From: a virus
Lineage: Duplodnaviria > Caudoviricetes
IMG/VR virus record: IMGVR_UViG_3300023235_001725
DNA length: 64,000 nt
Reading direction: 5' to 3' (one strand)
A model generated the notes under the pieces. The model was not told the DNA's origin and did not search any database. It saw only the letters and a list, made by a program, of their open reading frames with translations. Both the position numbers and the translations under genes were made by a program. Every line of letters begins with the position of its first letter. The first letter of the stretch is position 1. Below, one piece after another: positions 13,172-52,595 of this stretch.

Positions 13172-15849
13172 GCTTCTACTTCTGTTTTTATTTCTTTCAC
13201 CTCTTTCTTAGGCTTCAAAGTCTTCTCGTTTTTGAAAGACAACTCTTCTCCTTTTCTTCCGATAAGGATTGGTGTTTTCTTCCCAACGTTACCGCCTAGA
13301 ATCTCAAAACTCAATGGCTCACGGACAAGTTCCGTAATCGCTCTTTTAACTGGTCTCGCTCCAAACTGTGGGTCGTAGCCTTTTATTCCAAGCAACTCCA
13401 CTGCCTCTGCGGTCCAGTTCAACTCGTACTCTTCCTCTTCCATGTTCTTTCTGAAAGATTTGAGTTGCAATTCAACAATCTGGTTAATTGCGGTTTGGTC
13501 GAGCGGGTTGAAAATAACAACCTCGTCAAGTCGGTTAAGAAGCTCAGGGCGCATTGTTTGCTTGAGTTCTTCCATAACGTCCTCGTTGATTGCTTTGACA
13601 AGCTCTGGCGTTATTACGTTTCCTGAATCCTCGAATTCATCTTGGATAACTCTGGACCCAATGTTTGAAGTCATGATGATGATGGTGTTCTTAAAGTTCA
13701 CCAATCGTCCTTTGTTGTCTGTTAGACGTCCATCGTCTAGAACCTGCAGAAGCACGTTCAACACATCTGGGTGAGCCTTCTCAATCTCGTCCAACAACAC
13801 AACATTGTATGGGCGCTTTCGGACTGGCTCCGTCAATTGACCTCCTTCGTCATATCCAATATACCCTGGAGGCGAACCTACAAGTCGAGAAACAGTGTGC
13901 TTCTCTTGGTACTCAGACATGTCAATTCGAATCATGTGAGTTTCGTCATCAAATAGGTACTCAGCAAGCGCTTTTGCCAACTCTGTTTTTCCAACTCCCG
14001 TTGTTCCCAAGAATAGAAATGAACCAATAGGCTTCTTTGGGTCACCAATACCTGGGACACGATTCACTCGGATTGACTTCGCAACTTCTGATACAGCCTC
14101 TATTTGTCCGATAACTCGCTTTTGCAATTCATCTTCAATGTAAAGAAGTTTCTCATTATCACTCTTTGTCATTTTCGAGACTGGAATTCCAGTCCAAGCC
14201 GAAACAACTTCTGCAATCTCTAACTCAGTCACAACTTCTTTTAGAAGCTTGTGGTGAGATTGAATCTCAATCAGTTTCTCTCTAGCTACTGCTTGTTGCT
14301 TTTCGTTCTCTGGCAACTCACCGTGAAGGAGCTTTGCAGCTCCTTCAAGGTCTGAGTTCTTTGTGAACTGCTCCGCCTGGAAAGACAATTCTTCTTGGGC
14401 TCGCTTGAGTTCTTGAATCTCGTCAATGTACTTCTTTTCACGAAGCCACTTCGCATTCAAATCTTCTTGCGTCTCAATTAGCTCAGACAATTTGTCGAGC
14501 ATCTCTCGCTTGCGCTTCTCAGATGCATTTGAATCTGAGCCCATTGCTGCGAGCTCAATTCGAATTTGTGTGATTTCTCTGTCAACTTCATCCAGCACTT
14601 CTGGCTTGGAGTTAATCTCCAAACGAATTTTAGATGCAGCTTCATCAATCAGGTCGATTGCTTTGTCTGGAAGGTTTCTATCGGTAATGTATCTGTCCGA
14701 CATCTTCACTGCCGCAATCAAGGCATCATCTGAAAACTGAACCTTGTGAAAGTTTTCATACCTACTTTGAAGACCGCGTAATATTGCAACTGTTGTTCCA
14801 GGAGTTGGTTCTTCGACCATTACTTTTTGAAATCTACGCTCCAAAGCTGAATCTTTCTCGATGTGTTTCTGGTACTCGTTCAGAGTTGTTGCTCCAACCG
14901 TTGCCATTTCTCCACGAGCCAAAGCGGGCTTCAAAAGCTCTCCTGCACTCAAAGCTCCACCACCTGAACCTGCGTCCAAGATTGTGTGAATCTCGTCAAT
15001 GAACAAAATGAACTCTTTGTTAGAGTCCTCAACTTCTTTGATAACACCTTTAAGACGTTGTTCAAATTCTCCTTTAAATGAAGCCCCTGCAATTAGAGAA
15101 GCCATGTCAAGAGAGAACAAAGTGCACCCTTTCATATTGACTGGGACATCTCCGCTAAATATTCTTTGTGCCAATCCTTCAACAATAGCTGTTTTACCAA
15201 CTCCTGCCTCTCCAATCAAAATTGGATTGTTCTTGGTGCGTTTTGAAAGGATGTGAAGGGCACGACGCATTTCCGTGTCTCGCCCAATAACTGGGTCAAG
15301 CTTGTTTTGCTCCGCACGTTCGTTTAAGTTGACGGCGTATGCATCCAAGTTGGGAGTTTTGCTTTCTCCTCCTTCTGCGATGAATTCATTCTCACCTTGA
15401 ATATCTTCAAGCGCTGAATCGAGGTGCTTCTCTTCGATATCCATCGAGATAAGTACATTTGTGGCAGTGGAGTTCACACGGAAAAATGCTCGAAGCAAGT
15501 GTTTTGGTTGGCAGAGTTGTTCTCCACCTTGTTCGTTTTCTCCAAACCCAATTGCTATTACCAGAAGTTGATTCATCACCTCAGACATCTCTGGACGACC
15601 TTCGTACTGAACAACTTTGGTGTTCTCTAAGAAAGTCTTTGACAACGTGTTCATCTCTTCGATGGTATATGTCTTACCGCTGTCTTCGTTTACTTTATCT
15701 AGGATAATTGCAACCAAATTATCTTGTTCAACCAGTATAGCACGTAAAACGTGTATTGGCTCAACTTGTTTGTGAGAGAATGACATTGCTTGACGCTGTG
15801 CTCTTGCAAGCGTATCATGTGCCCCTGGGGAAAATTGTTCGTTATTCAA
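13168..15849 (-). CDS. clpB: Chaperone ClpB
   Basis: 893 aa; Clp-[16 protein letters not shown], coiled-coil middle domain, [19 protein letters not shown]. Confidence 0.96.
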
Positions 15850-15922
15850 GATTCTTTTGTTTTTAGGTTCTGCGTTTCTGAATGTTTTCTTTTAATATAC
15901 GAGCACTTTGTCAAAAGGTTAC

Positions 15923-20611: not shown

Positions 20612-22228
20612 TTACTGGGTAATCAATTCGAAGTCAACCGTTCTGTAAGCCTGGTTAGCTCCTTGAGCTCCTGCTTTAACAGCTTTCTTTGGACCATTGC
20701 CAACAGCTACTATTCTGTTTGGGTCGATGCTCCACGCTGTAACCATATAGTCTTTAACTGACTCGGCACGTTCCTTTGAAAGGCGCTCGTTAATCATTGA
20801 CGAGCCTTGTGCATCAGTGTTTCCTACAATTCGAATGGTCGCTCCCATGTTTGTTCGGGCAACTGTTCCAAATTCAGATTTAATGTAATTTTTTGCATTG
20901 AAATCTAGGTTTGAGCTTCCTGTTTTAAAGTACACTTGAAGTGCTTTAGAGGATATTGCTGCCACAGTCTCTGTGTTGGCAAAGGTTGGTGAAGGCGCAT
21001 TTTCAATCACTGTGTTTTCAGCAACATAACCTGGCTTATTCATTAATCCTTTTTCCTCCATACGTTTAGCAACTTCCTGGACGATGCTTCGGTCAGAAAC
21101 CTGCCCCCAATTCGGGAATGAAGCAATCACTCCTGATTTTACAAATCGTTTTCCAGTTTCATCGTACAGCTCTTGTGCGGTTACATTTTCATATGCTCGG
21201 TTAAGGCCAAAGAAGTTAACGTTGTCCGCTATTGATGTGTAGTATACATCGCTAAGTGAAGCGTAGGCATCTTCGTAAGTAACAAACCCTTCAAGATTGT
21301 CTACAAGAATTTGCGCTCCTTTTTGACGTGCTTCATCTGAGGTTTGAAGTTCAGCTGCTCCCATTGCCCATCCTTCGAAAAGGTTTACAAGGTTTTCGAA
21401 GTTTGCATCTTTAAAGCTTTTCTTCACAAGGAATCCATCGGCGATAATATGTGTTGCGGTTTTTGTATCCATCAACACTCTTGCTGCATTTGAGTCCTTC
21501 ATCTTAGCGTTGATTGTCTCAACACAGTTGAAGTTGTCTGGTGCCCATACAATTGCGGCATCCGCTTGTCCTGAATTAAATACTTGAGCTGCATCTAAAG
21601 CACTTGGGCATGGTGCTGGGACGATGTCATCCAATGTCAGTCCTCCTGCTTCTAATACATACATCAAAAATGCGTGTGATGGTGTTCTCTCTGAGTAGGC
21701 TATCGTTTTTCCTCGTAAGTCCTGGGCTGAATTAATTCCAGCATCCGTTCGAACCACACAGGCATCTCCACCACGTGAGAAATCTGATTGCCATACATAC
21801 TCTACTCCTGACTTAGCTAGTCCTGCCGCTTCCGCAGGAAAACTTTCCACTGTTGACCAGAGCAAGTCCACTTCATCCCCAATAAGAGCTGAACGAGATG
21901 CTAATTGGTCTTCAAGAAGAACAAACTGGACATCAAAGCCATAGTTTGAACGGAACCTTGAGCCAGAGTTAGGAGAAAATCCGTTGTTCCAGTATTGTGC
22001 TGCAAGGTAGCCAGGCCACGTTACAACTCCAATTCGGAACACTTGAGTTCCATCCTCAGACACTGGAGCCATTGGCTCTAAAATCTGTGTTTCGTCGTCT
22101 CCTGCGACGACAATATTGTCTCCTCCTTGTCCAATATAGCCATTGCTATATGCGAAGTAGAGACCCCCTATTAGTGCAATCACTAAGAGGATTGACGTGA
22201 TACGCCCTTTACTGACTTGTACTGCCAT
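20612..22228 (-). CDS. ABC substrate-binding protein fused to OmpA-like domain
   Basis: TWPGY, SDFSRGGD, LRGKTIA; C-terminal VYFKTGSS..GNTDAQG..LSKERAESV OmpA_C. Confidence 0.9.
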   Translation of the reverse strand: MAVQVSKGRITSILLVIALIGGLYFAYSNGYIGQGGDNIVVAGDDETQILEPMAPVSEDGTQVFRIGVVTWPGYLAAQYWNNGFSPNSGSRFRSNYGFDVQFVLLEDQLASRSALIGDEVDLLWSTVESFPAEAAGLAKSGVEYVWQSDFSRGGDACVVRTDAGINSAQDLRGKTIAYSERTPSHAFLMYVLEAGGLTLDDIVPAPCPSALDAAQVFNSGQADAAIVWAPDNFNCVETINAKMKDSNAARVLMDTKTATHIIADGFLVKKSFKDANFENLVNLFEGWAMGAAELQTSDEARQKGAQILVDNLEGFVTYEDAYASLSDVYYTSIADNVNFFGLNRAYENVTAQELYDETGKRFVKSGVIASFPNWGQVSDRSIVQEVAKRMEEKGLMNKPGYVAENTVIENAPSPTFANTETVAAISSKALQVYFKTGSSNLDFNAKNYIKSEFGTVARTNMGATIRIVGNTDAQGSSMINERLSKERAESVKDYMVTAWSIDPNRIVAVGNGPKKAVKAGAQGANQAYRTVDFELITQ

Positions 22229-23010: not shown

Positions 23011-23212
23011 TTTTCTATTTTTTATTCTTACTCGTTTGGCTTTTCAGTTTTCGCCCCGTTTTTAAAATGGTTGCTGGTCTCCACTTTTTTATTTTTTATC
23101 AAAACTGTTCTTCAAGATTATTCAAAATATTTTTTCAATTCTCTTTTCAGTCTACGATGTCGTTTCTTAAACTTGCCCATAATATACGTGCATGAACGGT
23201 AAAGGTTTCGAT

Positions 23213-29676: not shown

Positions 29677-29889
29677 GACTCATGTGGTTACAGCCGCAGT
29701 CGGTTTCTTCCGACCACAGCTCGTTACATGAGTTTTGTATTCCCCAAGGGAATGAACCATCTTAACTTTGGCATGGAGTTTTTATTTGTAATATACGTAT
29801 AAAACTTTAAAAAGTTTCACTCGTCGCAGCCAGGGTAATCCTCGCAATATGGGAAGTCTTCCAAATCGTTTTATTATAAGTAGCTCCGA

Positions 29890-30192
29890 TTATGGCCATG
29901 TCTCCAGATATATGTTTGTCATTATCATGTTTCCAACCTCTACTCTTGCTGTGCCTAGAAATTTATATTTGAAAGTGGTAAGTTTAAATCCTGAGCGCGT
30001 TATAGAACGAGTCTTAACTCCACCCATAAAAACTATAGGATGCAAACTATGAGGCCCAATAGATGACAACTGTGATTCTATCAAAAATACATCTCCAGGA
30101 GTCAGGTCGCTTAATTCAGGCGGATTTTTATATTCATGAATGAAGCTCCTGCTTTTGATGTGCACTATTTGAAAAGGTATTATGTATTCCAT
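29890..30192 (-). CDS. Hypothetical protein
   Basis: 100-aa ORF. Confidence 0.55.
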   Translation of the reverse strand: MEYIIPFQIVHIKSRSFIHEYKNPPELSDLTPGDVFLIESQLSSIGPHSLHPIVFMGGVKTRSITRSGFKLTTFKYKFLGTARVEVGNMIMTNIYLETWP

Positions 30193-30212
30193 TCAAAACG
30201 GTAAAATTTTTG

Positions 30213-30296
30213 TGACCAAGGAGGGATTCGAACCCACAAGTGCCTTTCGGACACCAACTTAGGAGGTTGGCGCAATATCCATTCTGCCACCTGGCC
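30213..30296 (-). tRNA. tRNA-Arg(CCT) with long variable arm
   Basis: CCAAC-CTCCTAA-GTTGG; variable arm TGTCCGAAAGGCACTT; A73; A at D-loop position 20. Confidence 0.8.
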
Positions 30297-30354
30297 AAAT
30301 CTCACCCAACAAATACAAGAACTTATGCTTCCACATTCCCGAAGGAGCCTTGCT

Positions 30355-30745
30355 TTTAAGATGTCCCCACAATAGGGTTAGAGCTACGCTTGTTGTCAGG
30401 GAATCGTTCCTGTCTGATTTCGTGATACGGCATCAACTACCCATCTCTGTGGCACTACCCACTTCTATTCATGCGACGACACACTAGCCTCCTGTGGGGA
30501 TATTTATTAGGGCCCGTTTCTTAAATGTCAGCGGCTGGAATCAGAGGCCTTCTGTCCAGCGGGACCGTCTTGCTGTTCCGAGGAACAGAGCAGAGGACGA
30601 CACAAGGTCTTTAACTGAGGCGCATAGCTATCGTGCCATTTCTTTACGGAGTCACTGTATCTCCACCCGCTACACCGCCATCTTTCGATGGAACTACCCT
30701 TGGAGTTGTCATCCGTTATGGGCTTTTCAGTGCCAGTTAAAATAA
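30355..30745 (-). ncRNA. Long structured non-coding RNA region (one or two RNAs)
   Basis: No credible ORF; hairpins CCATC-GAAA-GATGG and CTGTTCC-TCG-GAACAG; ATCCCCACAG/TTGTGGGGAC closing stem; RNase-P-like motif fragments. Confidence 0.5.
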
Positions 30746-30753
30746 TACCAAAA

Positions 30754-30857
30754 ATACTCGGTGTGCTATTACGCTAAAAGCTCTCAGATGGTCCCTTTAA
30801 CACCTCACGTCGCTACTCTTTAGATGATGGCTGCTTCCAAGCCTACATTCCAAGTAT
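30754..30857 (-). ncRNA. Stand-alone 23S rRNA uL11-binding (H43-H44) mimic
   Basis: ATACTTGG-AATGTAGGCTTGGAAGCAGCCATCATCTAAAGAGTAGCG-[39 nt]-TAATAGCACA-CCGAGTAT versus 23S consensus GGAUGUUGGCUUAGAAGCAGCCAUCAUUUAAAGAAAGCGUAAUAGCUCAC. Confidence 0.8.
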
Positions 30858-30859
30858 TT

Positions 30860-31270
30860 TTAAATTACACCTGAATAAACCACAACAGTCTGCCCTTTCT
30901 TCTTCTTAGGCTTACCTTGTGTTAACTCAAAAACTTCTGTAAGTATTTCGTTTTCCCCTGAAAGGCGTGTAACAACTAAACTATAAGTTTCAAGATGAGG
31001 CCCGTTGATAGGTACTCCTCCAACAATATCGATGTCAATAGAGCGTGTGTCACCATTGACAGTATTAGAAACAACGCCTCCTGTGGTGTTTTTTGGCAGC
31101 CAGACCTCAATCTTAACTTGATATTCATTTCCTCCTAGAGCAGTGATTGTAACGACGGGTTCATACACGGCAATGGATTCTTCGTCGTTATAGACGGGTT
31201 CTGCTGCAAAAGCAGAGGGCAGAAAAAACATTGAAATAAATACAATGATAATAGATGCGTAAGATTTCAT
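30860..31270 (-). CDS. Secreted hypothetical protein
   Basis: Signal peptide ending AFA; beta-rich body. Confidence 0.7.
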   Translation of the reverse strand: MKSYASIIIVFISMFFLPSAFAAEPVYNDEESIAVYEPVVTITALGGNEYQVKIEVWLPKNTTGGVVSNTVNGDTRSIDIDIVGGVPINGPHLETYSLVVTRLSGENEILTEVFELTQGKPKKKKGQTVVVYSGVI

Positions 31271-31446
31271 AAGCGTTATTTGTTTTTGTTTATATTACTA
31301 TTATACGGAGCTTTTCGAAAAAAGTTTCATTTGCTGTCTTTAAAAAACACAAGAAGCTTTACTAGCACCACATTGCCTGGGCTAGGAACCCAGGGTGTGT
31401 AAAGCATTAGGCGTCTCAGGAGATAAATCTCCATTCTTGCATTTAG

Positions 31447-31518
31447 TGACCCCGCCAGGATTCGAACCTGGGACCGATTCCTTAGAAGGGAATTGCTCTT
31501 CCACTGAGCTACGGGGCC
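31447..31518 (-). tRNA. tRNA-Arg(TCT)
   Basis: ATTCC-CTTCTAA-GGAAT, canonical cloverleaf. Confidence 0.92.
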
Positions 31519-31537
31519 AAATGTAAATATACGAAAA

Positions 31538-32539
31538 TCATTCCTCCAATAAAAAATGATTCGAAATAACTTTAAAAGAGACTCTATCTTGTCCATCGCC
31601 GCTTACCCAAACATCTCCTTCTTTCTGAGTCTCTGGATTTAACTGGCTTGGTCCATCAGCCATTTCTAGGATGGCATCTACAGATTCAGGCAATGCCATA
31701 GACGCTGAGACAAGTGGAACTAACTTTAGGCTCATTTGAGTGGCTAATTCTTGACAATCTTTTTTCGAGAGGTATGCGTATTCATCAATGTTGAATATGT
31801 TATAAACTCGGTATTCTTTTGTCACAAGCTCATATGGATTATCGCTGATTCCAGGCCCAACCAACTCGCCTTGAATAGCAATATTTTTACCGTAAGCTTT
31901 TAATTTCTCTTCTAGCCCTTCTTCTATCGCCGAAGACCACAAAGCATTGCTTTCAAGTTTTTTATATTGATAGTTTCTTCCACAAACGCCAAATTCGTTT
32001 GCGTTATGAAAAACTGTCATCGAGAGTCCATTAAGTTTTTCAGTTACGAAAAAAGTTCGCCCCTTTAAAAGCTCTATCTCCGAATCTAAGTTTTGAATTC
32101 TTTCCTCTTCTGTCTTTTTAATAAACGACGGAAAAACTCCAATTGCACTTTCCATCATTTCTTTTGGAATAGGTGGGTCGTACTTGATTATCTGTAACTG
32201 CTCAGTTACATCTTCTCCAATTTTAAAATCTCCTGAAGAAAGAACTGACAAAGGAAGTATGAGGCCTTGTGATATTTGACCTCGAAGTTTCATTGTTCTT
32301 AATCGGAACCCCGAAACTCCATATGGCAATTCTCTAAAACAAGATTTTCGAAGAAACTCAAATTCTTCTTTCACAGGCAATAAAGAATCTATCTCACAAT
32401 AAACTACCATGTCGCCAACATTGAATTCTCCTTTTTTGACCACTGACCTCCAACCACCAACTTTTGCAAGTTCGATACGGTCAGCTTTTTTAATAGGATG
32501 TAGTGATTCTATTCTCCGAATGGTTGCTAGTTTTCTCAT
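31538..32539 (-). CDS. RNA ligase (Rnl2-related, DRB0094 family)
   Basis: Start MRKLATIRRI; N-terminal OB domain ADRIELAKVGGW, motif I TEKLNG, QGELVGPGI, EGDV, FKVISN. Confidence 0.9.
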   Translation of the reverse strand: MRKLATIRRIESLHPIKKADRIELAKVGGWRSVVKKGEFNVGDMVVYCEIDSLLPVKEEFEFLRKSCFRELPYGVSGFRLRTMKLRGQISQGLILPLSVLSSGDFKIGEDVTEQLQIIKYDPPIPKEMMESAIGVFPSFIKKTEEERIQNLDSEIELLKGRTFFVTEKLNGLSMTVFHNANEFGVCGRNYQYKKLESNALWSSAIEEGLEEKLKAYGKNIAIQGELVGPGISDNPYELVTKEYRVYNIFNIDEYAYLSKKDCQELATQMSLKLVPLVSASMALPESVDAILEMADGPSQLNPETQKEGDVWVSGDGQDRVSFKVISNHFLLEE

Positions 32540-32582
32540 GTAAGCAAATATACGCATTCAATTGGGTTTTGTTTCAAATAAG

Positions 32583-32666
32583 CACGCCGAGCAGAAGTCG
32601 AATCTGCACATCCCTTACGGGCAAGGGTTTTGGAGACCCTCTGTCTCACCAATGAATAGCCGACGT
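32583..32666 (-). tRNA. tRNA-Trp(CCA) with long variable arm
   Basis: AGGGT-CTCCAAA-ACCCT, variable arm TGCCCGTAAGGGAT, G73. Confidence 0.8.
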
Positions 32667-32693
32667 GTATTAATTCTAACGTTGTAATTTTAG

Positions 32694-32776
32694 CGCTGGT
32701 CGTAGGAGTCGAACCCACAAATCCCGAAGGCGACAGGGTTGGAATCTGTCTCTCTCACCTATGAAGTAGGACCAGC
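32694..32776 (-). tRNA. tRNA-Trp(CCA) with long variable arm
   Basis: GCTGGTC/GACCAGC acceptor, loop TTCCAAC, variable arm GCCTTCGGGAT, G73. Confidence 0.75.
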
Positions 32777-32830
32777 GTATCGTATCTGTTTGGTCAGGTT
32801 AATCCTGACCTGGTCGATACAAACCATAAG

Positions 32831-32904
32831 TGACCCCGCCGAGATTCGAACTCGGAACCCTCAGTTTAGAAAACTGATATTCTGTCCAATTGAATTACGG
32901 AGCC
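32831..32904 (-). tRNA. tRNA-Arg(TCT)
   Basis: TCAGT-TTTCTAA-ACTGA. Confidence 0.88.
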
Positions 32905-32906
32905 AT

Positions 32907-33731
32907 TTAATTTCTTATATATGTGTTTACAAATCTTTTAACTCCCCCAGGCTTCATATTCAAAGCTTCGCAAGCTTGTTTCACCCAACCTCTTTTATTA
33001 AAATCAATATGAGACATGAGGTTTTTTCTTTTATTAACTTCTTCCTGTGAGAGCTTAAATTTGTTTTTAAACCCATCTTTCATCTTTCTACCTTTTACCC
33101 ACCCTTGACTAAAGAAATCTTCAATAGTCTGTTTGTTAACTTTTTTAGAATCAACTCCATTATTAATCCAGCAAGTATTAAATTGAGAATTAGATTTACC
33201 AATTCCTTTTCCTTTCTTTACTATTCTCAACTTTTTAATTGTCTCAGGTGTATGCTCTTTTCCTGACCAATCATAATGGTCTTGAATGTTTGGTATTCTT
33301 CCCTCTTTGTAGGCTTTTTTTAATCCTTTTAACCTAGCTTCCTCCCATTTCTTTTTAAACTTCGGGTTTTCATCTGCTTTTTTCTTAGCTGCTTTAGCAG
33401 CACAAATAGACCTATGCCTCTGATGCTCATCACTGATAAATCCCCCTCTGCCTCCTGGCATTAGATTCATACAGTCATTCTTAGCAATTTCCTCCAATGT
33501 CACGACCTCTTTTTCCTTATCAATCAACTCCTTTCGAGAATTGCAAAACTCAAGTATCTCTCTGGAGTGACATTCAGCTCCATGCTTATTGACAGAACGT
33601 CGAAGACGCTTACCTGAACCCAGGTATCCATCTTCAACTACATCGGTGGAATGCATCCCAATATAATATCTACCCGTTAGGGTATTAGTGGTTTTGTAGA
33701 TGTAATGAAACTTCTTTTCTTTTCTAGGCAT
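32907..33731 (-). CDS. GIY-YIG homing endonuclease (Seg-like, NUMOD3 repeat)
   Basis: HYIYKTTNTLTGRYYIGMH, YLGSG, HTPETIKKL; inserted inside the tRNA cluster. Confidence 0.88.
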   Translation of the reverse strand: MPRKEKKFHYIYKTTNTLTGRYYIGMHSTDVVEDGYLGSGKRLRRSVNKHGAECHSREILEFCNSRKELIDKEKEVVTLEEIAKNDCMNLMPGGRGGFISDEHQRHRSICAAKAAKKKADENPKFKKKWEEARLKGLKKAYKEGRIPNIQDHYDWSGKEHTPETIKKLRIVKKGKGIGKSNSQFNTCWINNGVDSKKVNKQTIEDFFSQGWVKGRKMKDGFKNKFKLSQEEVNKRKNLMSHIDFNKRGWVKQACEALNMKPGGVKRFVNTYIRN

Positions 33732-33782
33732 GGTGTATTATTTCTAATACATAGCTTCAAAAAGTACAAAACCGCCCAGGGG

Positions 33783-33867
33783 TGGACGAAGTGGGGTTCG
33801 AACTCTCGCACCCCGAAGGGCCTACTGCCTTTCCAAGACAGCCTCTTTACCATTTGAGTATCTATCC
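33783..33867 (-). tRNA. tRNA-Ser(GGA)
   Basis: CTGTC-TTGGAAA-GGCAG, long variable arm; weak T-stem. Confidence 0.75.
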
Positions 33868-33870
33868 ATA

Positions 33871-33960
33871 TGGAGGCGAAGATGGGGGTCGAACCCACGT
33901 AACATTTTACTGCCCTACCGCTTTAGCAAAGCGGCCTCTTTACCATTTGAGTACCTCGCC
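33871..33960 (-). tRNA. tRNA-Ser(GCT), CCA encoded
   Basis: CCGCT-TTGCTAA-AGCGG, long variable arm. Confidence 0.9.
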
Positions 33961-33996
33961 ATATGGCTCTAGTTTGAGTCGAGAGTCACGACTTTG

Positions 33997-34084
33997 AGGA
34001 AGCGAAGGGAATCCAACCCTCGTCACAATTAAGTGAGCCAGTTTTCAAGACTGGTGCGACAATGACAACATTCGCGTCACTTCC
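33997..34084 (-). tRNA. tRNA-Ser(TGA)
   Basis: CCAGT-CTTGAAA-ACTGG, long variable arm, atypical D- and T-loops. Confidence 0.8.
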
Positions 34085-34116
34085 ATAAAAACCCAACATG
34101 TCAAAGAACTGTATTG

Positions 34117-34202
34117 AGGAAGATAGAGGGTTCGAACCCCTGCCGAGCAAACGACACCCAGGGGTTCAAGCCCTGTTCCACACCACTTGCGAGGTACCTT
34201 CC
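34117..34202 (-). tRNA. tRNA-Ser(TGA)
   Basis: CAGGG-CTTGAAC-CCCTG, long variable arm. Confidence 0.88.
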
Positions 34203-34216
34203 TTATTTTTTGGACA

Positions 34217-34249
34217 CAAAAAAAGCCCTAAGATTTCTCCTAGGGCTTT
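34217..34249 (-). terminator. Attenuator terminator upstream of Ser/Arg/Trp tRNA cluster
   Basis: AAAGCCCTAGGA-GAAA-TCTTAGGGCTTT plus U-tract; competing CCTAGGGC at 34295-34302. Confidence 0.85.
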
Positions 34250-34274
34250 CCTTGATATCGTTTATGAATTCACA

Positions 34275-34358
34275 TTAACGCATAACTCGGTCAGGCCCTA
34301 GGTTTTTCCTAGAACTCCATCTTGATGACGACCAATTTATGTTTGGGAGTGTTTTCAT
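34275..34358 (-). promoter_or_regulatory. Leader peptide (27 aa) of tRNA-cluster attenuator 2
   Basis: MKTLPNINWSSSRWSSRKNLGPDRVMR*; TGG TCG TCA TCA AGA TGG AGT TCT AGG at 34308-34334. Confidence 0.82.
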
Positions 34359-34461
34359 TGTTTTTGTTCTTTACCTTCAAGTTTTATTTCTCAGGGACGA
34401 GAAGGAATTAGTTGTCAATATATAGTTGGGAAAAATATTTTCTCGTTCTATAATTGAGACG

Positions 34462-34469
34462 CAAAGATA
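34462..34469 (-). promoter_or_regulatory. Bacteroidota-type -7 promoter element TATCTTTG
   Basis: Matches TAnnTTTG; similar elements at 32545-32552 and 56057-56064. Confidence 0.65.
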
Positions 34470-34560
34470 TACAATAAGTTGCATCTATTCCAAGTTTTTA
34501 TGTAAATATTTAAAAATTATTTTACAATTTACTGATTTTTAGTGTATTGTGAAATAGTAG

Positions 34561-36704
34561 TAAATTATTCCTTTACAGGATGAGGTGATAAACAGGGGTA
34601 TGATGTCAAACCAAGAAGTGCAAAATGTTGTGATTCCCTTACAGGATGAGATGATAAACAGGGGAGGGAGCAACTTCAAATACCTACAAGCTGTTGTGAT
34701 TCCCTTGCAGAATGAGATGATAAACAGGTCTAACGATGGAATAACCACCTTAGGCGAAGTTGTGATTCCCTTGCAGAATGAGATGATAAACAGGTTTAAA
34801 AGTTGAATGCGCCCCGTGCATCCCGTTGTGATTCCCTTGCAGAATGAGATGATAAACAGGTGAGCATTATTCTCTAAACAAAATTTATCTCGAATAAATT
34901 TCAGCCTATTTCAGATTAAACAACAACAATGGAAAATGAAATCGACCGTCTAAATTATCTTTTAACAGCTGTAAACACAGAGAACACATTGAAAGGGCTT
35001 GCACTTGCTGAAATCACCAAAATCTGCTGTCAAAAGTCAAAGAATTTCAGAGATATAAAGCAAATCGAAGACATCCTTCTTAAACTAAAAAATAATCAGC
35101 AGAAATTCCGTTTTAAACAGGAGATAAAATATTTCAAACAGATGGCAGGTAGTTGTGATTCCCTTGCAGAATGAGATGATAAACAGGCGGATTACGATTA
35201 GCCACAGCACCCAACAGTTGTGATTCCCTTGCAGAATGAGATGATAAACAGGCACAGCCAAATAAAGAATTACCAAGATGGTGTTGTGATTCCCTTGCAG
35301 AATGAGATGATAAACAGGTACCAAAACAGAAACATATTTGCTTGCCATGTTGTGATTCCCTTGCAGAATGAGATGATAAACAGGAGGGAATTGATACATC
35401 AGAAAGCCTTTATGTTGTGATTCCCTTGCAGAATGAGATGATAAACAGGGGCAATCGCCTTGAATAATTTTGCTGTTCAGTTGTGATTCCCTTGCAGAAT
35501 GAGATGATAAACAGGAGACTATAATGAATACCGATTTGAGGAAGAGTTGTGATTCCCTTGCAGAATGAGATGATAAACAAGGCAAAGGTCGGGAGCTTGC
35601 AAGCAGATATAGTTGTGATTCCCTTGCAGAATGAGATGATAAACAGGACAAAGGATAAGAAGGGCGTGTAGCTATTAGTTGTGATTCCCTTGCAGAATGA
35701 GATGATAAACAGGCAAAGCAACATCGAATGGAAGCAAGAGAGTAGTTGTGATTCCCTTGCAGAATGAGATGATAAACAGGTTCACCTTCGTTTCGAGGTG
35801 GTTTTTGTCTGTTGTGATTCCCTTGCAGAATGAGATGATAAACAGGGAAGCTTTTGGAACTAATTCCGCTAATCGAGTTGTGATTCCCTTGCAGAATGAG
35901 ATGATAAACAGGGGAATCGAATTCCTTTAGTACGTTCCTTTTGTTGTGATTCCCTTGCAGAATGAGATGATAAACAGGTAGATTAAATCTTAGTCTTCAA
36001 GACCAATCGTTGTGATTCCCTTGCAGAATGAGATGATAAACAGGGACGGTATGCATTCAAAATATCATTGCGCTGTTGTGATTCCCTTGCAGAATGAGAT
36101 GATAAACAGGTAGATTAAATCTTAGTCTTCAAGACCAATCGTTGTGATTCCCTTGCAGAATGAGATGATAAACAGGGACGGTATGCATTCAAAATATCAT
36201 TACGCTGTTGTGATTCCCTTGCAGAATGAGATGATAAACAGGCTACTTCAACTTGACCCAAAAAGACATACAGTTGTGATTCCCTTGCAGAATGAGATGA
36301 TAAACAGGTGCAGTCCAATTCATGATAAACGCATTAAAGTTGTGATTCCCTTGCAGAATGAGATGATAAACAGGTCAATTTCATGTTGGGTGCTGTGACT
36401 AAAGGTTGTGATTCCCTTGCAGAATGAGATGATAAACAGGTTTATTTAAACAATGCAAAAAACAAACCAAGTTGTGATTCCCTTGCAGAATGAGATGATA
36501 AACAGGTGGACCACTCAACCCAAATAACCCGCGCATGTTGTGATTCCCTTGCAGAATGAGATGATAAACAGGTGCACAAAGCTTTAATTATCAAAGGTTC
36601 ACGTTGTGATTCCCTTGCAGAATGAGATGATAAACAGGTGTTTGAAGTTGGCGAACTTGATTCTAAGAGTTGTGATTCCCTTGCAGAATGAGATGATAAA
36701 CAGG
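34561..36704. CRISPR. CRISPR array, 29 repeats of 36 bp, spacers 29-31 bp
   Basis: Repeat GTTGTGATTCCCTTGCAGAATGAGATGATAAACAGG; two leftmost repeats degenerate; one 291-bp interruption (34861-35151); 27 normal spacers; probably transcribed on minus strand with the cas operon. Confidence 0.98.
34929..35174 (+). CDS. Small ORF inside the CRISPR-array insertion
   Basis: MENEIDRLNYLLTAV...; A-rich leader; stop lies inside the next repeat, so the native 3' end is probably lost. Confidence 0.45.
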   Translation: MENEIDRLNYLLTAVNTENTLKGLALAEITKICCQKSKNFRDIKQIEDILLKLKNNQQKFRFKQEIKYFKQMAGSCDSLAE

Positions 36705-36790: not shown

Positions 36791-37507
36791 TCAGATGTAG
36801 AGTTTTGAGTTTGTAATCTCCATAACCATTCCAAACCCTATTCCTGTAGATTGTCCCAAACCATAGTCGTGAATAGCTTGAGCAATCTTTTTGTTGCAAT
36901 GTACAACAACGCTGCATACATTTGCTTTGTTCACACTGGTTTTACTTGGGGCTCCAGAAGAACTCATCAAAATATCTCTAACCTTATTGTGGTTTGATTT
37001 CTGAACTTCAATTCTAAAGCCGTCAAATTTTAAAGTGTTGTCAATGTTTGACAAACGTCTTTTTGTTTGTTCAGACAACTCCTCTTCAAACCCATCATCA
37101 TTTAGGGTGTGAAATTCATAACGGCCTCCATTTTTTTTCTTTAGCAAAATGCCAGTTTCAGTGGTTTTAAAAACAGTAAAACCATCATACAAGTCTTCTT
37201 GGATGAACTCAATGCCCGTCAGTTTCATTCCAAATCCAAAATCTTTATTTGCTCCTGCTCCTGCGAGAAGTTTATTTAAAAAGCTCTCGTCTCCAGAGGA
37301 TATAAACAAACTGCCTCCATGAGCGTACTCAATGGATGTTCCGCCTTCTGTAATCGTTCCTCCAATCATCCTAGAGATAACATAGTTAGAAGGTTGATTG
37401 TGATAGAGATTATCTTTTCCTAAGCATTTATGAATGTAACTCACAACGTGCTTAAGGTTATTTGGAACCAACTCCTTTGCGGAGCTAAATTTTAACTGTA
37501 TTCTCAT
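36791..37507 (-). CDS. cas6: Cas6 endoribonuclease (I-B/III-like, not Cas6f)
   Basis: C-terminal G-rich loop YGLGQSTGIGFGMV; 238 aa; adjacent to array. Confidence 0.88.
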   Translation of the reverse strand: MRIQLKFSSAKELVPNNLKHVVSYIHKCLGKDNLYHNQPSNYVISRMIGGTITEGGTSIEYAHGGSLFISSGDESFLNKLLAGAGANKDFGFGMKLTGIEFIQEDLYDGFTVFKTTETGILLKKKNGGRYEFHTLNDDGFEEELSEQTKRRLSNIDNTLKFDGFRIEVQKSNHNKVRDILMSSSGAPSKTSVNKANVCSVVVHCNKKIAQAIHDYGLGQSTGIGFGMVMEITNSKLYI

Positions 37508-38385
37508 GACTCTATTGTAAGTTTAGTGGATATATCTCCTACTCTATCATAACCCTCAATGCTTAGCCTGTTTCCCGATACCACTCTTTCAATCCAAACC
37601 AAGCCTCCATCCAATATAGTTGCCACACCAGCTGAGTTTTCAAGGACTTCTTTGTCTTCTTCATCAAGCGGCACAATAAGGGTTCCGCTCAAGCGAATCG
37701 TTTTATCTATGCCATTGGGAACAACCAGCATAAGTCCTTTTGCGATAGAGTCCTTAGCCATCTCCATAGGGTCGTTTTTATCAGTAGGAGTCTTATTTCT
37801 CAGCCAGTTAACGACACCCGTTTTTCCAACTTTACGTTCTCTAAAATGAGAGAGCAAAGCTTGTTTAGAGGCTGAGTTTAAAGATTGCTTAAAAATATCA
37901 GGCACATCTTCTACTGGAACTTTTCTAATATTTGAGTGGCCCGTTGCCTCTATGAGCATTGTGATGAAATCACCATAATGCTCTTTTAGGTAGGCTTCAA
38001 TCAAATCCCAAGTGAGGTTTGTTATTTTGGCGTTTGAGTTCCAAAAAGCTTTCCTTGTGCGGCATATCTCTTTAATTTCTCGAACATCCCCTTTTTTAGT
38101 AACCCAAGTGGGCACTTCAATCTTTAGGAAGCTGTTTTTTGCCTTCTCAATCAATCTATCCTGCTTCTGATAGACACAGGCCCCAAAAAAAGGGACTGGT
38201 CTTTCATTAAAAAGCACGTGCAAGACATTTGAAATCTGATGATGTGTTAAGTAGGACTCAAATTGAGGGAGCCCCTTTCGAATCTCACCTGCGTCTTTAT
38301 TTCCAAGAAACAATTTATCTTTCGTGTCTTTATGGTTACGAAACAAAACTGCATCTTTAAACTTCAAAACCATAAATTCTTTCAT
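37504..38385 (-). CDS. cas5: Cas5fv-like subunit (type I-F2 variant)
   Basis: LTHHQISNVLHVLFNER and LSGTLIVPLD..EVLENSAGVATILDGGLVWI resemble Cas5fv motifs; enlarged at 293 aa. Confidence 0.65.
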   Translation of the reverse strand: MKEFMVLKFKDAVLFRNHKDTKDKLFLGNKDAGEIRKGLPQFESYLTHHQISNVLHVLFNERPVPFFGACVYQKQDRLIEKAKNSFLKIEVPTWVTKKGDVREIKEICRTRKAFWNSNAKITNLTWDLIEAYLKEHYGDFITMLIEATGHSNIRKVPVEDVPDIFKQSLNSASKQALLSHFRERKVGKTGVVNWLRNKTPTDKNDPMEMAKDSIAKGLMLVVPNGIDKTIRLSGTLIVPLDEEDKEVLENSAGVATILDGGLVWIERVVSGNRLSIEGYDRVGDISTKLTIES

Positions 38386-39464
38386 GCTGGGGTGGTTTCG
38401 GTTTTCTTTACTTTCTCTGCTTTTTGCTTTGCGGCTTTGGCTTTCTTTTCCACGCTATTCTTTTTTAAAGTTGCTCGTTCTTCTTCCGCGTACTTCTTTA
38501 ATTCTTCATGAAGTTTTTTTGCATCTCCAGTAACATCTTCCGTATATGCTTCAAACACTTCATACTGCAGAGCTTGAATATTTTCTATTGAATTGATTTC
38601 GACCCAACCCTCTTCGCTGTTAAACCTGTCAATCAAAGGATTGGAAACCAGTTTCACCATCAGCTTCTCTTTGCGTGCATAAGCACTGCTTCGACTGATG
38701 TCCAACGTAAGAAGCTTTTCTAAAAATACAGAAACTAATAAACGAACCTGGTCATCTGTGAATTTGAATCCACGCTCAGCAATGTTTACAGAACTTCCTC
38801 TCATTTGGAAAAATCCAAGCTCATTATCAAATGAGCCAAAGTGAATGTCGGCGTACTTTTTGAATAAATCAAAATGGTCGGGATTAAAACCATAACGTCC
38901 CATGATTTCGTCACAAGAGTAAAACTGAAGCTCTTTCAGGTTTATAGCACCTTGAGATGAATACTTAATCTTCCCAATTGTTTCTTTTTTGTAGATAGAA
39001 TTATCACTTTTTTCTTCGTCTGCTTCATAGCTGATTTTCTCACCAGACTTTGAATGGAATTCGAGACGCGAAAGAGCATCGCACGTTTGTTCGGCAGCTA
39101 CTAGTGTAATGGCTCCTTTTCTTTTTAACGTATCGTTTTTAATGGCATGCAAGTGCCCATTAAGAATGCTTTCTGGATGGGCAAGGTTTGCATAAAGTAA
39201 ATCTTTATTGTGTGTAAGCTTTGGTGTTTGAGACACTTTATCATACATCGCATGCTTCATGCAGGTAGGCGAAATAACTAATTTGTAACGAGGCTCTTTT
39301 CCATCGTTGTAAATGTTTCTCTTTGCATACATTACGTTGCTATGGTATGATTTTAAGAAAGGGAATTTTTCTCCAATATGGAACCGTTGCTCATTGCTAT
39401 CGTAATTAACAACGCCATTGCCTTCAATTTCAATTTTAAAAAGAATTGACTTTACTTTGCTCAT
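38382..39464 (-). CDS. cas7: Cas7fv-like backbone subunit (type I-F2 variant)
   Basis: KSILFKIEIEGNGVVNY, LVISPTCMKH, KETIGKIKYSSQGAINLKELQF and TDDQVRLLV parallel Shewanella Cas7fv motifs as recalled. Confidence 0.8.
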   Translation of the reverse strand: MSKVKSILFKIEIEGNGVVNYDSNEQRFHIGEKFPFLKSYHSNVMYAKRNIYNDGKEPRYKLVISPTCMKHAMYDKVSQTPKLTHNKDLLYANLAHPESILNGHLHAIKNDTLKRKGAITLVAAEQTCDALSRLEFHSKSGEKISYEADEEKSDNSIYKKETIGKIKYSSQGAINLKELQFYSCDEIMGRYGFNPDHFDLFKKYADIHFGSFDNELGFFQMRGSSVNIAERGFKFTDDQVRLLVSVFLEKLLTLDISRSSAYARKEKLMVKLVSNPLIDRFNSEEGWVEINSIENIQALQYEVFEAYTEDVTGDAKKLHEELKKYAEEERATLKKNSVEKKAKAAKQKAEKVKKTETTPA

Positions 39465-39506
39465 GGTAATCTGTTTAAAGGTTAATATGTAATTTCTATG
39501 AATTGT

Positions 39507-41834
39507 TTACTCGTAAATTGGCTGGTCAAACTCTTCCAGTAAAGTTTTTTTAATATATCCGTAAATGTCATGATATTCCATATCCATCCTCGGATACGGC
39601 ATTGATTTGTATTTCGCCATTATACGCAATAATTCAAGATTTGTGCTATGCTTTGGAACTTTTAAAAATCTAGTGTAATCAAAAGCGCAATCTGGCTCAT
39701 CGTTAAGATGTTTAATTATCTTAAATACTTTTGCTAGTGCGTTGGAGTCTTCATGGAAGTCTTCGGGTATAGAATCATAAATAGGAGTTGATTTAGGCTG
39801 TGTCCATTCTTTTTTTGCCCATTTTTTAGCAGTAAAAAAGATTTCATTTCCTTTGCTTCTATAGCTAGTTTCTTGTATTTTATGGACTTCCGAGTTTTCA
39901 CTTTTAATCGTTAACCTATTAGGATAAATTTTCTCATGTAAATCCATGCGGCTTTGTCGATATTTTGTGTTTAACCAGATTCTTCTTAAGGCTTCATTTT
40001 CTTTACAATGTTTATTATACAAAGAATATAGGTTATCTAAAGTTGTTTCCCCTTGACTTTGTGTTAGAAAATTAAACCATAAGTCAGACAGTTCTCGTGA
40101 GTACATTGTTTCGCGGGCTCTATTCTCACTTCGTCCAGAATTATCTGAAGGGATTCGATATGTTAGAATTTCAGACTGGTCATCATAATCTCCCCACCTG
40201 TCGACACGGCCTACTCTTTGAAGAGTAGCTTCTGGAGACAGGCAACTTTCAATCAAATGCCTAAAAGAAACATCTAAAGATGCCTGTGCTATTGGGCTCG
40301 CTATTACGTGTTCTTTTTCAATATTTCTGTCGGATTGCTTTCCATAGTTTTGAAGAATAACGCTTAATCGCGCTTGATTGTCGTCGTCCTCAAATTTTCC
40401 ATGAAACAAAATAGTATCTTCATTGTGTTTGTGCTTATTTCTTTGACACTCAACTATAGAATTAGAGATAAAAAGAACAGGGCTTTTTTTACTTTCAGAT
40501 ATTCTAGAACGCCCCTCTTTTGTAGTGAGTTTGTATGATTTATTGTGGACAGCAGGAGCATGTTCAAATTTTCCAGGCAAATGGGCTGTTGAGTTGTCAA
40601 ATGAATCCCAATAAACTGATAAATCAAGTGGGGTTGCGGACAGCAGTAAAGAGCGTCCGTTTGTCATCTGATGTCTTACCTTCATTAGATTTATAAAACC
40701 AGCCAGTAAAGCCCCGTCCGACACTAGCTCATGATACTCATCAAATACAACATCTGCATCGGATACCATTAATAAATCAATATCGTTACAATGCTCTTTT
40801 GTCGGACGTAAAAAGTTATCTACGTTGGTTACAATGATATCGCTTGAAAACTTTATTCCTAAATCTGAATTTGAGGCCTGTTGTTTTCCAGCGTAATATA
40901 ATTCTACTGAAGTTTCAATTCCTGCATTTTTAAGCTCTCTTAAGATGTTGTGGTACACTGATTGTGCCACAGCATTTCTTGGACACACCCAAATAAGCCG
41001 TTTATTGTTGACAGTGCTCCAAAGTAAACCTAGAAGTGTTTTTCCGTATCCAGCAGGGGCGTTGATTTGAACAGTCTTAAACGAGGTCGTCCTAGATGCT
41101 AAAGCAACTTGTTGTGTCCATCTTTTTTCATGTCCAGGATATGGGCATTTAGTAAAAGCGTAACGGTGTTGTTGAATCAGTCGTTCATTTATAGTTTTTT
41201 TAATTTCATCAACTGTAAAATCTCCTAATTCACTAACTAAGTGGTCAGCTCTTACCACGCACATGCGAATAATCGTGTTGTCAACGTTGAGGTCGCTCGT
41301 CTCGTTAAAATCTCTAATATAGTAATGAGGGCTTGATGTTTCAGCTATTCTTGGCCTATCAAGGACTTGGCCAGGAAATAATTCTTCGACGAATTCAATC
41401 ATTCTATCGATAGAATTATCTTTCTTCTTCCGAACCCACTCAAGAATAGACGCATCTGTGTGCTTGCCCATTACATTGTTAATGCCGTGATGCCAGTATA
41501 CTGCTTCAGCAACTTGTCTTAGCTCCTCTGAGTCAAAGCTGATGTACATTCTTACAAATGCCCATCCCACTTCATTGTGCGAAAAAATAATGTCTTTTTT
41601 CTTTGTTTTAGTGGATTTACCATTTAAAGAGTTTCGGAGTAAAGTTTGAAACTCGGTTTCGGCTTTTCCAATATCATGAAGAAGCGCCGCTTTGCGGATA
41701 ACTGATATAAAATGTTTTTTTTCTGTATCTGAGGTAACTATAACTGAGTCGGCAATATATTCCGCAACCTCAGCAACCTTTCGACTGTGCTCAATCAGGG
41801 TTTCGCCAGTACTTTTTGCTAATAACTCATCCAT
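39507..41834 (-). CDS. cas3: Cas3 HD nuclease-helicase (no Cas2 fusion)
   Basis: EHS...LLHDIGK HD domain, RADH, APAGYGKT, FDEYH, LSAT, QASLDV, QRVGRVDR; 775 aa. Confidence 0.95.
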   Translation of the reverse strand: MDELLAKSTGETLIEHSRKVAEVAEYIADSVIVTSDTEKKHFISVIRKAALLHDIGKAETEFQTLLRNSLNGKSTKTKKKDIIFSHNEVGWAFVRMYISFDSEELRQVAEAVYWHHGINNVMGKHTDASILEWVRKKKDNSIDRMIEFVEELFPGQVLDRPRIAETSSPHYYIRDFNETSDLNVDNTIIRMCVVRADHLVSELGDFTVDEIKKTINERLIQQHRYAFTKCPYPGHEKRWTQQVALASRTTSFKTVQINAPAGYGKTLLGLLWSTVNNKRLIWVCPRNAVAQSVYHNILRELKNAGIETSVELYYAGKQQASNSDLGIKFSSDIIVTNVDNFLRPTKEHCNDIDLLMVSDADVVFDEYHELVSDGALLAGFINLMKVRHQMTNGRSLLLSATPLDLSVYWDSFDNSTAHLPGKFEHAPAVHNKSYKLTTKEGRSRISESKKSPVLFISNSIVECQRNKHKHNEDTILFHGKFEDDDNQARLSVILQNYGKQSDRNIEKEHVIASPIAQASLDVSFRHLIESCLSPEATLQRVGRVDRWGDYDDQSEILTYRIPSDNSGRSENRARETMYSRELSDLWFNFLTQSQGETTLDNLYSLYNKHCKENEALRRIWLNTKYRQSRMDLHEKIYPNRLTIKSENSEVHKIQETSYRSKGNEIFFTAKKWAKKEWTQPKSTPIYDSIPEDFHEDSNALAKVFKIIKHLNDEPDCAFDYTRFLKVPKHSTNLELLRIMAKYKSMPYPRMDMEYHDIYGYIKKTLLEEFDQPIYE

Positions 41835-52451: not shown

Positions 52452-52523
52452 TCTACAAATGTAATCAATTTTACAAATATAAAAACTGTTCGAAGGGCGG
52501 CCTTTTTCTATCTGTAATTCAAG

Positions 52524-52595
52524 AGGGGCGTAGGGGGTTCGAACCCCTGACGTACAGGGTTAAAGCCTGATGTTCTACCTCTGAACTAACGCCCC
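52524..52595 (-). tRNA. Putative ochre suppressor tRNA (anticodon TTA)
   Basis: GGGGCGT/ACGCCCC acceptor, U73, CAGG-CTTTAAC-CCTG with canonical 7-nt loop, T-loop TTCGAAC. Confidence 0.8.

Follow-up and report, generated by a model that had tools for sequence, protein, structure and literature searches.

A putative leader-peptide attenuator with Trp, Ser and Arg codons ahead of a phage tRNA and RNA ligase operon

The stretch of viral DNA analysed here (IMG/VR record IMGVR_UViG_3300023235_001725; Duplodnaviria; Caudoviricetes), whose full length of 64,000 nucleotides (nt) we call the window, carried a short open reading frame (ORF) with nine consecutive codons for Trp, Ser and Arg, followed by a predicted intrinsic terminator and then by genes for transfer RNAs (tRNAs) cognate to those codons and for an RNA ligase. 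This leader unit, all of whose features lie on the minus strand (Table 1), is probably a ribosome-mediated (leader-peptide) transcription attenuator placed before a phage tRNA and RNA-repair operon. We base this reading on the codon run, the geometry of the folds, the homologous units, the signatures of translation and of an RNA switch, the folds of a leader masked by a ribosome, the pattern of conservation, the putative promoter and the tRNA content of related loci. An earlier, sequence-only reading of the window had proposed such an attenuator. Both the ORF and its nine-codon run were found as it had described them, and its proposal gained weight from two relatives in which the ORF, the run, the terminator and both alternative helices were conserved with compensatory changes.

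Cognate codons (TGG, TCN, AGY and AGR) made up 14% of the six-frame triplets of the window and 11% of the codons in its long ORFs; at the latter frequency the chance of a nine-codon run is about 2.5e-9 per position. Runs of at least nine cognate codons were expected 0.0023 times in the whole window, and the sole other long one was a simple tandem repeat that lies at the edge of the window. Homologous leader units were present on two contigs, L055 (L055/L056) and L057, so that the comparison covered three independent sequences from one phage lineage. The leader ORF of L055 (8951-9034, ATG at 8951) had 27 codons, MNTFTNISWSSSRWSSRFTLGPDRDMC, with the run TGG TCA TCG TCA AGA TGG AGT TCT AGA; that of L057 (5479-5565, ATG at 5479) had 28 codons, MYTVVNTSWSSSRWSSREDSQGPGHAMR, with the run TGG TCA TCG TCA AGA TGG AGT TCT AGG.

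The peptide WSSSRWSSR encoded by the run was identical in all three loci. Across the run, 24 of 27 alignment columns were invariant (89%), and the three variable sites were all third positions and all synonymous. Residues flanking the run varied at 12 of 18 aligned positions (Fisher p ~0.001 against the run). In the same three-way alignment, the terminator was the other well-conserved segment, with 84% of columns invariant (27/32), set against 40-60% in the promoter region, the 5′ untranslated leader, the remaining ORF, the spacer and the linker. The ATG and the stop fell in the same alignment columns in all three loci (stops TAA in the window and L057, TGA in L055), and in every locus no frame but that of the leader stayed open between the aligned ATG and the aligned stop. 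The sole indel within the ORF was 3 nt long, against indels of 2 and 34 nt outside it, which are not multiples of 3. Taken as a sequence signature, the synonymous-only changes in the run, an indel that keeps the frame, and conserved start and stop codons speak for translation of the leader. The 5′ untranslated leader of the window lacked a Shine-Dalgarno sequence in the A-rich stretch ahead of the ATG, and it contained a 34-nt insertion specific to the window.

At minimum free energy (MFE), the 176-nt leader folded into two hairpins, a 1:2 helix and the 3:4 terminator (z = -6.5 against shuffled sequences). The terminator hairpin in isolation had an energy of about -21.5 kcal/mol in the window and -21.5 to -25.8 kcal/mol across the three loci. 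Its GC core paired 34246-34238 with 34233-34225, and its tract of seven U residues (34224-34218) ended 15 nt ahead of the first tRNA-like gene (34202). The U-tailed terminator and the antiterminator named in the sequence-only reading can thus be placed: the former is the MFE hairpin at 34253-34218, and the latter a helix in which region 2, CCTAGGGC, is perfectly complementary over 8 nt to GCCCTAGG (34246-34239) in the 5′ arm of the terminator. The same region 2 segment can instead pair with GTTCTAGG (34315-34308), which belongs to the codon run, forming a 1:2 anti-antiterminator. As RNA, the segments that would pair in the antiterminator read CCUAGGGC (region 2) and GCCCUAGG (region 3). The leader therefore contains three alternative helices, 1:2, 2:3 and 3:4. 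A cmscan search of 29800-35000 at E <= 10 returned no Rfam leader family (Trp_leader, His_leader, Leu_leader, Thr_leader, Bacteroid-trp and others), riboswitch or T-box.

Substitutions between the loci preserved these helices. The AGG>AGA change of L055 in region 1 was matched by C>U in region 2, so that the pair 34308/34302, G-C in the window and L057, was A-U in L055. The lower-stem pair 34335/34287 was U-A in the window and L055 and A-U in L057. Two terminator pairs, 34241/34230 and 34252/34219, had changed on both sides in L057, from A-U to G-C. In L057, an A>G change in region 3 was accompanied by U>C in both region 4 and region 2, and the three core segments CCUAGGG, CCCUAGG and CUUAGGG of the window became CCCAGGG, CCCUGGG and CUCAGGG, indicating that both alternative partners followed region 3. 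We modelled a ribosome on the leader by masking about 29 nt around the aminoacyl (A) site and cutting the transcript before region 4. Free cut transcripts took the 1:2 fold in all three loci, and placing the mask on run codons 2-7 gave a fold closed by the 2:3 helix, again in all three, with energies of -20 to -31 kcal/mol that are comparable to those of the terminator hairpins.

The sequence-only reading had also pointed to a promoter element upstream, and the TATCTTTG motif is indeed there, with TTGG 20 nt further upstream, as part of a putative promoter in which TATCTTTGC was invariant in all three loci. We take TTTG and TAnnTTTG (-33/-7, spacing about 19-21 nt) to be the promoter consensus of Bacteroides and Flavobacterium. 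The TATCTTTG box at 34469 was the only TAnnTTTG box on its strand until 32552, beyond the first seven tRNAs, which leaves these seven without another obvious promoter; the gap from the terminator to the first tRNA is too short to hold one. A small hairpin lay just 3′ of the -7 box in each locus (window, about 34428-34445; L055, about 8904-8926; L057, about 5431-5452), where the leader transcript presumably starts. It was partly conserved, with stem sequences that differed among the three loci, and may be a 5′ stabilising stem-loop.

The tRNA genes expected downstream were recovered. ARAGORN at default settings called Ser(GCU), Ser(GGA), two Arg(UCU), one of the two Trp(CCA) genes and Arg(CCU); the second Trp(CCA) and one Ser(UGA) were called only at a lowered threshold, and the other Ser(UGA) was a sub-threshold match. 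Every codon of the run in the window could be matched to one of these genes at isoacceptor level. A lack of correspondence between leader codons and tRNAs in homologous loci had been named as grounds for dropping the attenuator; both relatives carry Ser, Arg and Trp or Trp-like tRNAs behind the leader. Downstream of its leader, L055 had four Ser tRNAs, including two Ser(UGA) genes that ARAGORN recognised without a lowered threshold, then Arg(UCU), an unusual tRNA whose anticodon loop has 6 nt, and a Trp-like tRNA, with Arg(CCU) beyond the ligase. L057 had five Ser tRNAs (one with anticodon CGA), Arg(UCU) and two Trp tRNAs, with a fragment resembling tryptophanyl-tRNA synthetase (TrpRS) between Arg and Trp. 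The RNA ligase occupied the same operon position in L055, L057 and a further syntenic contig, L058. A GIY-YIG endonuclease gene was found in the window and in L057. L055 lacked it and had its Ser, Arg and Trp tRNAs in one unbroken series, which suggests that the endonuclease gene was inserted. An ORF of 136 amino acids (aa) lay between the distal Arg(UCU) and Arg(CCU) genes of the window.

Table 1. Features of the leader unit and of the genes downstream of it in the window.
Feature	Coordinates	Strand	Details
Putative Bacteroidetes-type promoter	34462-34493	minus	TTGG 34493-34490, 20-nt spacer, -7 box TATCTTTG 34469-34462
5′ untranslated leader	34359-34461	minus	59% of ungapped alignment columns invariant
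Leader ORF	34358-34275	minus	27 codons + TAA, MKTLPNINWSSSRWSSRKNLGPDRVMR; read from sequence
Regulatory codon run, ORF codons 9-17	34334-34308	minus	TGG TCG TCA TCA AGA TGG AGT TCT AGG (W-S-S-S-R-W-S-S-R)
Region 1	within codon run 34334-34308	minus	5′ strand of 1:2 helix; upper stem 34315-34308, lower stem 34335-34330
Region 2	34287-34302	minus	CCTAGGGC 34302-34295 and GACCGA 34292-34287, the latter closing the lower 1:2 stem
Predicted intrinsic terminator (regions 3 and 4)	34253-34218	minus	5′ arm 34253-34238, GAAA loop, 3′ arm 34233-34218
Ser(UGA)-like tRNA, class II	34202-34118	minus	sub-threshold match to the selenocysteine tRNA (tRNA-Sec) model, 28.7 bits, E 0.012
Ser(UGA) tRNA, class II	34084-33998	minus	ARAGORN at lowered threshold
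Ser(GCU) tRNA, class II	33960-33871	minus	ARAGORN default
Ser(GGA) tRNA, class II	33868-33780	minus	ARAGORN default
GIY-YIG (SegE-like) homing-endonuclease ORF	32907-33731	minus	Pfam PF19835, E 5.9e-06
Arg(UCU) tRNA	32904-32830	minus	ARAGORN default
Trp(CCA) tRNA	32776-32693	minus	long variable arm
Trp(CCA) tRNA	32667-32583	minus	long variable arm
RNA ligase (PHA02142 OB-fold and RNA_ligase domain)	31538-32557	minus	Pfam E 1.4e-36, 3.8e-21
Arg(UCU) tRNA, distal	31518-31446	minus	ARAGORN default
Arg(CCU) tRNA, class II, distal	30296-30212	minus	ARAGORN default

In the mechanism that we favour, transcription would begin at the host-type promoter, and a ribosome would translate the 27 leader codons before RNA polymerase has left the leader, which presumes that transcription and translation are coupled here. 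Fast decoding of the Ser (UCA/UCG, UCU, AGU), Arg (AGA, AGG) and Trp (UGG) codons would bring the ribosome to the stop codon at 34277-34275. There it would sit within the would-be antiterminator, in the loop of the 2:3 helix, and hinder it, or it would leave and region 1 would pair with region 2 again. Either way, region 3 would be free, the 3:4 terminator would form, and transcription would end 15 nt before the first tRNA. If decoding is slow, with the cognate tRNAs scarce, cleaved or uncharged, the ribosome would park on the run and keep region 1 open; region 2 would then pair with region 3 before region 4 is made, allowing read-through into the tRNAs and the RNA ligase. Newly made tRNAs would speed up decoding of the leader and switch the operon off again, a negative feedback on decoding capacity. 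Candidate triggers are a mismatch with host codon usage, tRNA degradation during infection, and host anticodon nucleases.

A more specific version of this mechanism is conceivable, though we hold it to be less likely than not. The leader would then be a damage sensor within a phage counter-defence circuit: host anticodon nucleases, or shut-off of the host by the phage, would deplete the decoders of Ser, Arg(AGR) and Trp codons, and ribosomes would stall on the nine codons as on a checklist. The operon would then supply replacement tRNAs together with an RNA ligase able to reseal cleaved ones, and the class-II 'Arg' and 'Trp' tRNAs would act as serine-accepting rescue or decoy molecules. If these class-II tRNAs do accept serine, this would explain why exactly Ser, Arg and Trp share one operon and one leader.

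Several points weigh against the attenuator, or against its reach over the whole operon. The covariation rests on a handful of pairs in three sequences from one lineage, and MAFFT shifts region 2 of L057 by one base, so that the 2:3 covariation in that contig rests on its own folds and on direct reading, not on the alignment. Region 1 doubles as a helix strand, and conservation of the run could be partly structural and not coding. The isoacceptor-level match proposed in the sequence-only reading holds in the window and is not strictly conserved, as L055 has AGA in place of AGG despite carrying a tRNA-Arg(CCU). A caveat raised at the same time, that stalls on the last codons may cover the antiterminator, was borne out by the masking model: with the mask on the last codon of the run, the sole late position modelled, region 2 was covered and no antiterminator formed, while codons 2-7 still gave one. 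The terminator is always the most stable structure at equilibrium, as in classical attenuators, which means that the decision would have to be kinetic and made during transcription. In the window, the reach of the attenuator past the Ser genes is uncertain because of a weak terminator-like hairpin after Ser(GGA) (33789-33772), the inserted endonuclease gene, which together with this hairpin stands between the four Ser tRNAs and the Arg and Trp genes, and further TAnnTTTG boxes at 32552 and 31525 that could be separate promoters for the distal Arg tRNAs. Membership of the distal Arg(UCU) and Arg(CCU) genes in the same transcription unit is therefore uncertain.

Other readings of the same features were considered. 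Arrest-peptide and translation-stress models are represented by the TnaC, bmrCD and vmlR leaders, and the present leader might likewise be an attenuator that senses arrest by the peptide WSSSRWSSR or general translation stress (antibiotics, ribosome damage, free amino acids), with the codon-tRNA match secondary. The strictly invariant peptide, kept while synonymous codons drift, would fit such a sensor, as would the isoacceptor switch caused by AGG>AGA in L055, and examples of leaders responding to translation stress in general have been described (for example PMC4191407). We nevertheless find this unlikely: all nine residues are of the three kinds for which tRNAs are encoded next, with no other residue type among them, a coincidence with a chance of about 1e-8 or less; the tRNA product gives a direct feedback logic; and the flanks of the peptide, which are usually needed for arrest, vary. 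That the leader is strongly structured, with its z of -6.5, could also be explained by a switch made of RNA only, binding a ligand or a tRNA without translation in the manner of a riboswitch or T-box. The lack of any T-box, riboswitch or known leader family match at E <= 10, together with the signs of translation (period-3 substitutions, a frame-keeping indel, conserved start and stop codons), makes such a switch very unlikely in our view.

Alternatively, the hairpin could be a constitutive leaky terminator or serve in processing or stability, with the ORF encoding an ordinary micro-protein or simply being tolerated, and with the pairings arising from a near-palindromic, CCTAGG-like core common to all four segments. 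Since CCTAGG is self-complementary, it can give multiple pairings without selection for a switch, and the dominance of the terminator at equilibrium would agree with this. Against it, the core of L057 is non-palindromic (CCCAGGG/CCCTGGG/CTCAGGG) and yet keeps both the 2:3 and the 3:4 helix, the AGG>AGA change of L055 is compensated in region 2, and conservation of only the W/S/R run while both flanks vary would not be expected of a micro-protein; we regard this explanation as quite unlikely. Finally, the hairpin might terminate transcription of the co-oriented array of clustered regularly interspaced short palindromic repeats (CRISPR) upstream (34874-34561), or of a cas operon, with the ORF there by chance. 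In the window, the array shares the strand of the hairpin and stands 200 nt upstream, and L055 has this arrangement too. We consider this extremely improbable, as a conserved promoter box stands between the array and the ORF, and the tRNAs would otherwise be left without a promoter. Termination of the CRISPR array was rejected because L057, which has no array, keeps the promoter box, the ORF, the helices and the terminator after an unrelated gene of 85 aa. An attenuator that reads the supply of the tRNAs encoded behind it remains the reading that we prefer.

A general phage system of tRNA surveillance had been suggested on the grounds that a second leader in the window, attenuator 1, follows the same logic. 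Attenuator 1 (11351-11151) comprised a 41-codon ORF followed by a strong terminator of 20 base pairs before Pro, Asp, Ala and Tyr tRNAs, with a TATTTTTG box upstream, and an 11-nt segment within the ORF, GAATGACCTGG, duplicated the 3′ arm of the terminator. The terminator and antiterminator part of the suggestion thus stood. Its codon enrichment was not significant (11/41 codons against a 19% background, p = 0.15), with a suggestive local cluster GCG CCC GAT TAT, and no leader was found at the third tRNA cluster of the window. Within the window, the suggestion of a general system is therefore supported only in part. The sole close contig for attenuator 1, L063, ends in the promoter region just before the leader; contig L064 was not syntenic.

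Relatives of the leader unit were reached mainly through the RNA ligase. In a large protein collection, its closer relatives were 73, 69, 66 and 65% identical to it, those of L055/L056 at 73% and that of L057 at 69%. The contigs L055/L056, L057 and L058 were syntenic with the window, with the leader unit in L055 and L057. Other ligase relatives in IMG/VR and JGI metagenome contigs had at most 60% identity and were not syntenic with tRNAs, and two further relatives at about 55% (L060-L062) likewise lacked synteny. Exact and degenerate pattern searches of viral contigs for the codon run gave no match; the sole match among genome contigs, in a Vicinamibacteria metagenome-assembled genome (L059), was dismissed as chance, as it lay at the end of an ordinary gene. 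The GIY-YIG endonuclease family, which is huge and mobile, led to no new syntenic locus besides L057, and the tRNA clusters of contigs L002 and L004 had no leader ORF. Searches of GenBank phages with the window by megablast and blastn returned one 30-nt chance match only. The stretch was present in about 20 salt-lake metagenome runs, and the leader showed no differences across four of these, which therefore offer no within-population information. Proteins of the window were also found on a contig of 446,956 bases, which suggests that the source is a giant uncultured phage.

Several tRNAs in these loci had an unusual form. Arg (CCU, UCU) and Trp (CCA) tRNAs of 80-89 nt with long variable arms scored higher with the tRNA-Sec model than with the general tRNA model (window, 32776-32693, 32667-32583 and 30296-30212; L055, 9578-9661; L057, 7065-7153 and 8068-8147). 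Among bacterial tRNAs, class-II architecture is as a rule confined to those for Ser, Leu and Tyr, and the anticodons of these long-arm tRNAs are one change away from the Ser anticodons GCU and CGA. Judging from their sequences, they may be derivatives of tRNA-Ser. The tRNA-like gene with a 6-nt anticodon loop in L055 (9732-9806; a 2-nt 'anticodon', cg, in ARAGORN), between Arg(UCU) and the Trp-like tRNA, was absent from the window. A tRNA with anticodon UUA, a UAA suppressor, was kept in both phages (window, 52523-52595; L055, 114-185), and long ORFs of the window were intact under the standard bacterial code despite this suppressor. In the Leu/suppressor cluster, a 143-nt full-model tRNA match (54920-55062, 49.9 bits) is most simply read as a tRNA gene with an intron. 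Between tRNA genes, 30754-30860 weakly matched positions 1172-1238 of the archaeal large-subunit ribosomal RNA model (16.6 bits, E 0.09).

Genes related to RNA repair and aminoacylation were also found around the operon in the relatives. L055 had a second gene with an RNA ligase domain (15018-15896), 4 kb beyond the first (9964-10965), and the TrpRS-like fragment of L057 (7257-7973) encoded 238 aa of the TrpRS/tyrosyl-tRNA synthetase class (PF00579). Together, the ligase, the synthetase-class fragment and the tRNAs look like a neighbourhood for tRNA supply and repair.

Upstream of the leader ORF, the order was the TATCTTTG box, the CRISPR array and then a type I module running from cas3 to cas6. 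The array had a 36-nt repeat, 30-nt spacers and a degenerate repeat at its tRNA-proximal end, and cas3 and cas6 were recognised by Pfam beyond it, within 36791-41834. Among Logan contigs, the depth of the CRISPR repeat was about 20-25 times that of its flanks and contigs broke there, indicating that further arrays with the same repeat exist in the samples. A homologous array occupied the same place in L055 (8340-8770), with no cas genes between it and a deoxythymidine diphosphate (dTDP)-sugar epimerase gene. No relatives of the Cas6 of the window were found in IMG/VR, and a pattern search of viral contigs for the CRISPR repeat gave no match. Elsewhere, the window encoded cell-like proteins at 2396-4597 (a TonB-dependent receptor), 13168-15849 (a ClpB-type AAA+ chaperone), 20612-22228 (an OmpA-domain/substrate-binding protein) and 59063-60655 (a Ro60 (TROVE) homologue). 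A DUF805 RNA motif (RF03081; 78.5 bits; 23021-23089, minus strand) lay just upstream of a 233-aa ORF (23010-22309).

If the attenuator works as proposed, the phage would gauge decoding speed at codons of its own choosing and make tRNAs and an RNA repair enzyme on demand, which would address, at the level of regulation, the old question of why phages express tRNAs, and when. It would also tie phage tRNA expression to tRNA-targeting defence systems and provide a compact and portable sensor of the supply of particular tRNAs. To our knowledge, leader-peptide attenuation is known only for genes of amino-acid biosynthesis and transport, one synthetase and resistance genes. Full-text literature searches returned no case of leader-peptide control of tRNA genes and no codon-matched leader for tRNA transcription, and text searches of a genome-wide attenuator survey (PMC2965389) found no wording on tRNA genes or operons, aminoacyl-tRNA synthetases or pheST. 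Phage tRNAs have been described as counter-defence against tRNA-targeting immunity (PMC10264068, PMC11555353, PMC11464382), and by their titles and abstracts these papers concern the tRNAs themselves. Such counter-defence tRNAs, together with the RNA-repair enzymes of T4, replace or repair cleaved host tRNAs, and the operon described here likewise combines tRNAs with an RNA ligase.

In mechanism, the closest known systems belong to the trpL/hisL/pheL class generally and are above all thrL (Thr, Ile) and the ilvL leader of ilvGMEDA (Leu, Val, Ile). In these enterobacterial multivalent leaders, the regulatory codon run overlaps region 1 of the 1:2, 2:3 and 3:4 helices, and stalling favours the antiterminator. 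Like thrL and ilvL, the present leader has a short ORF with a multi-amino-acid run and a terminator just before the first structural gene. Unlike them, it is phage-encoded, with a putative Bacteroidetes-type promoter, no Shine-Dalgarno sequence and no similarity to Rfam leaders, and the genes under its control would be tRNAs and an RNA ligase, so that the loop is closed by the decoder and not by the amino acid. The Bacteroid-trp motif (RF01692) is, according to a table in PMC2864571, a candidate cis-regulatory leader in Bacteroidetes. It precedes tryptophan biosynthesis genes and had no match at the present locus. We take this motif to be a Trp-codon leader peptide with a terminator, which would place the mechanism in the likely host phylum.

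In purpose, the closest system is the pheST attenuator of E. coli (pheM), which tunes a component of decoding through the reading of its own codons; there the component is a synthetase for one amino acid, whereas here it is the tRNAs themselves, for three amino acids and with six anticodons. T-box riboswitches also respond to the state of one specific tRNA by a choice between terminator and antiterminator, and they too act on genes related to translation. They do so by binding the tRNA directly without translation, on synthetase and amino-acid genes and mainly in Firmicutes, whereas the present leader has coding signatures and no T-box match. The novelty lies in what is controlled and to what end: the genes behind the leader specify the tRNAs that decode its codons, along with an RNA ligase, and the loop would therefore regulate the supply of tRNAs and not that of amino acids.

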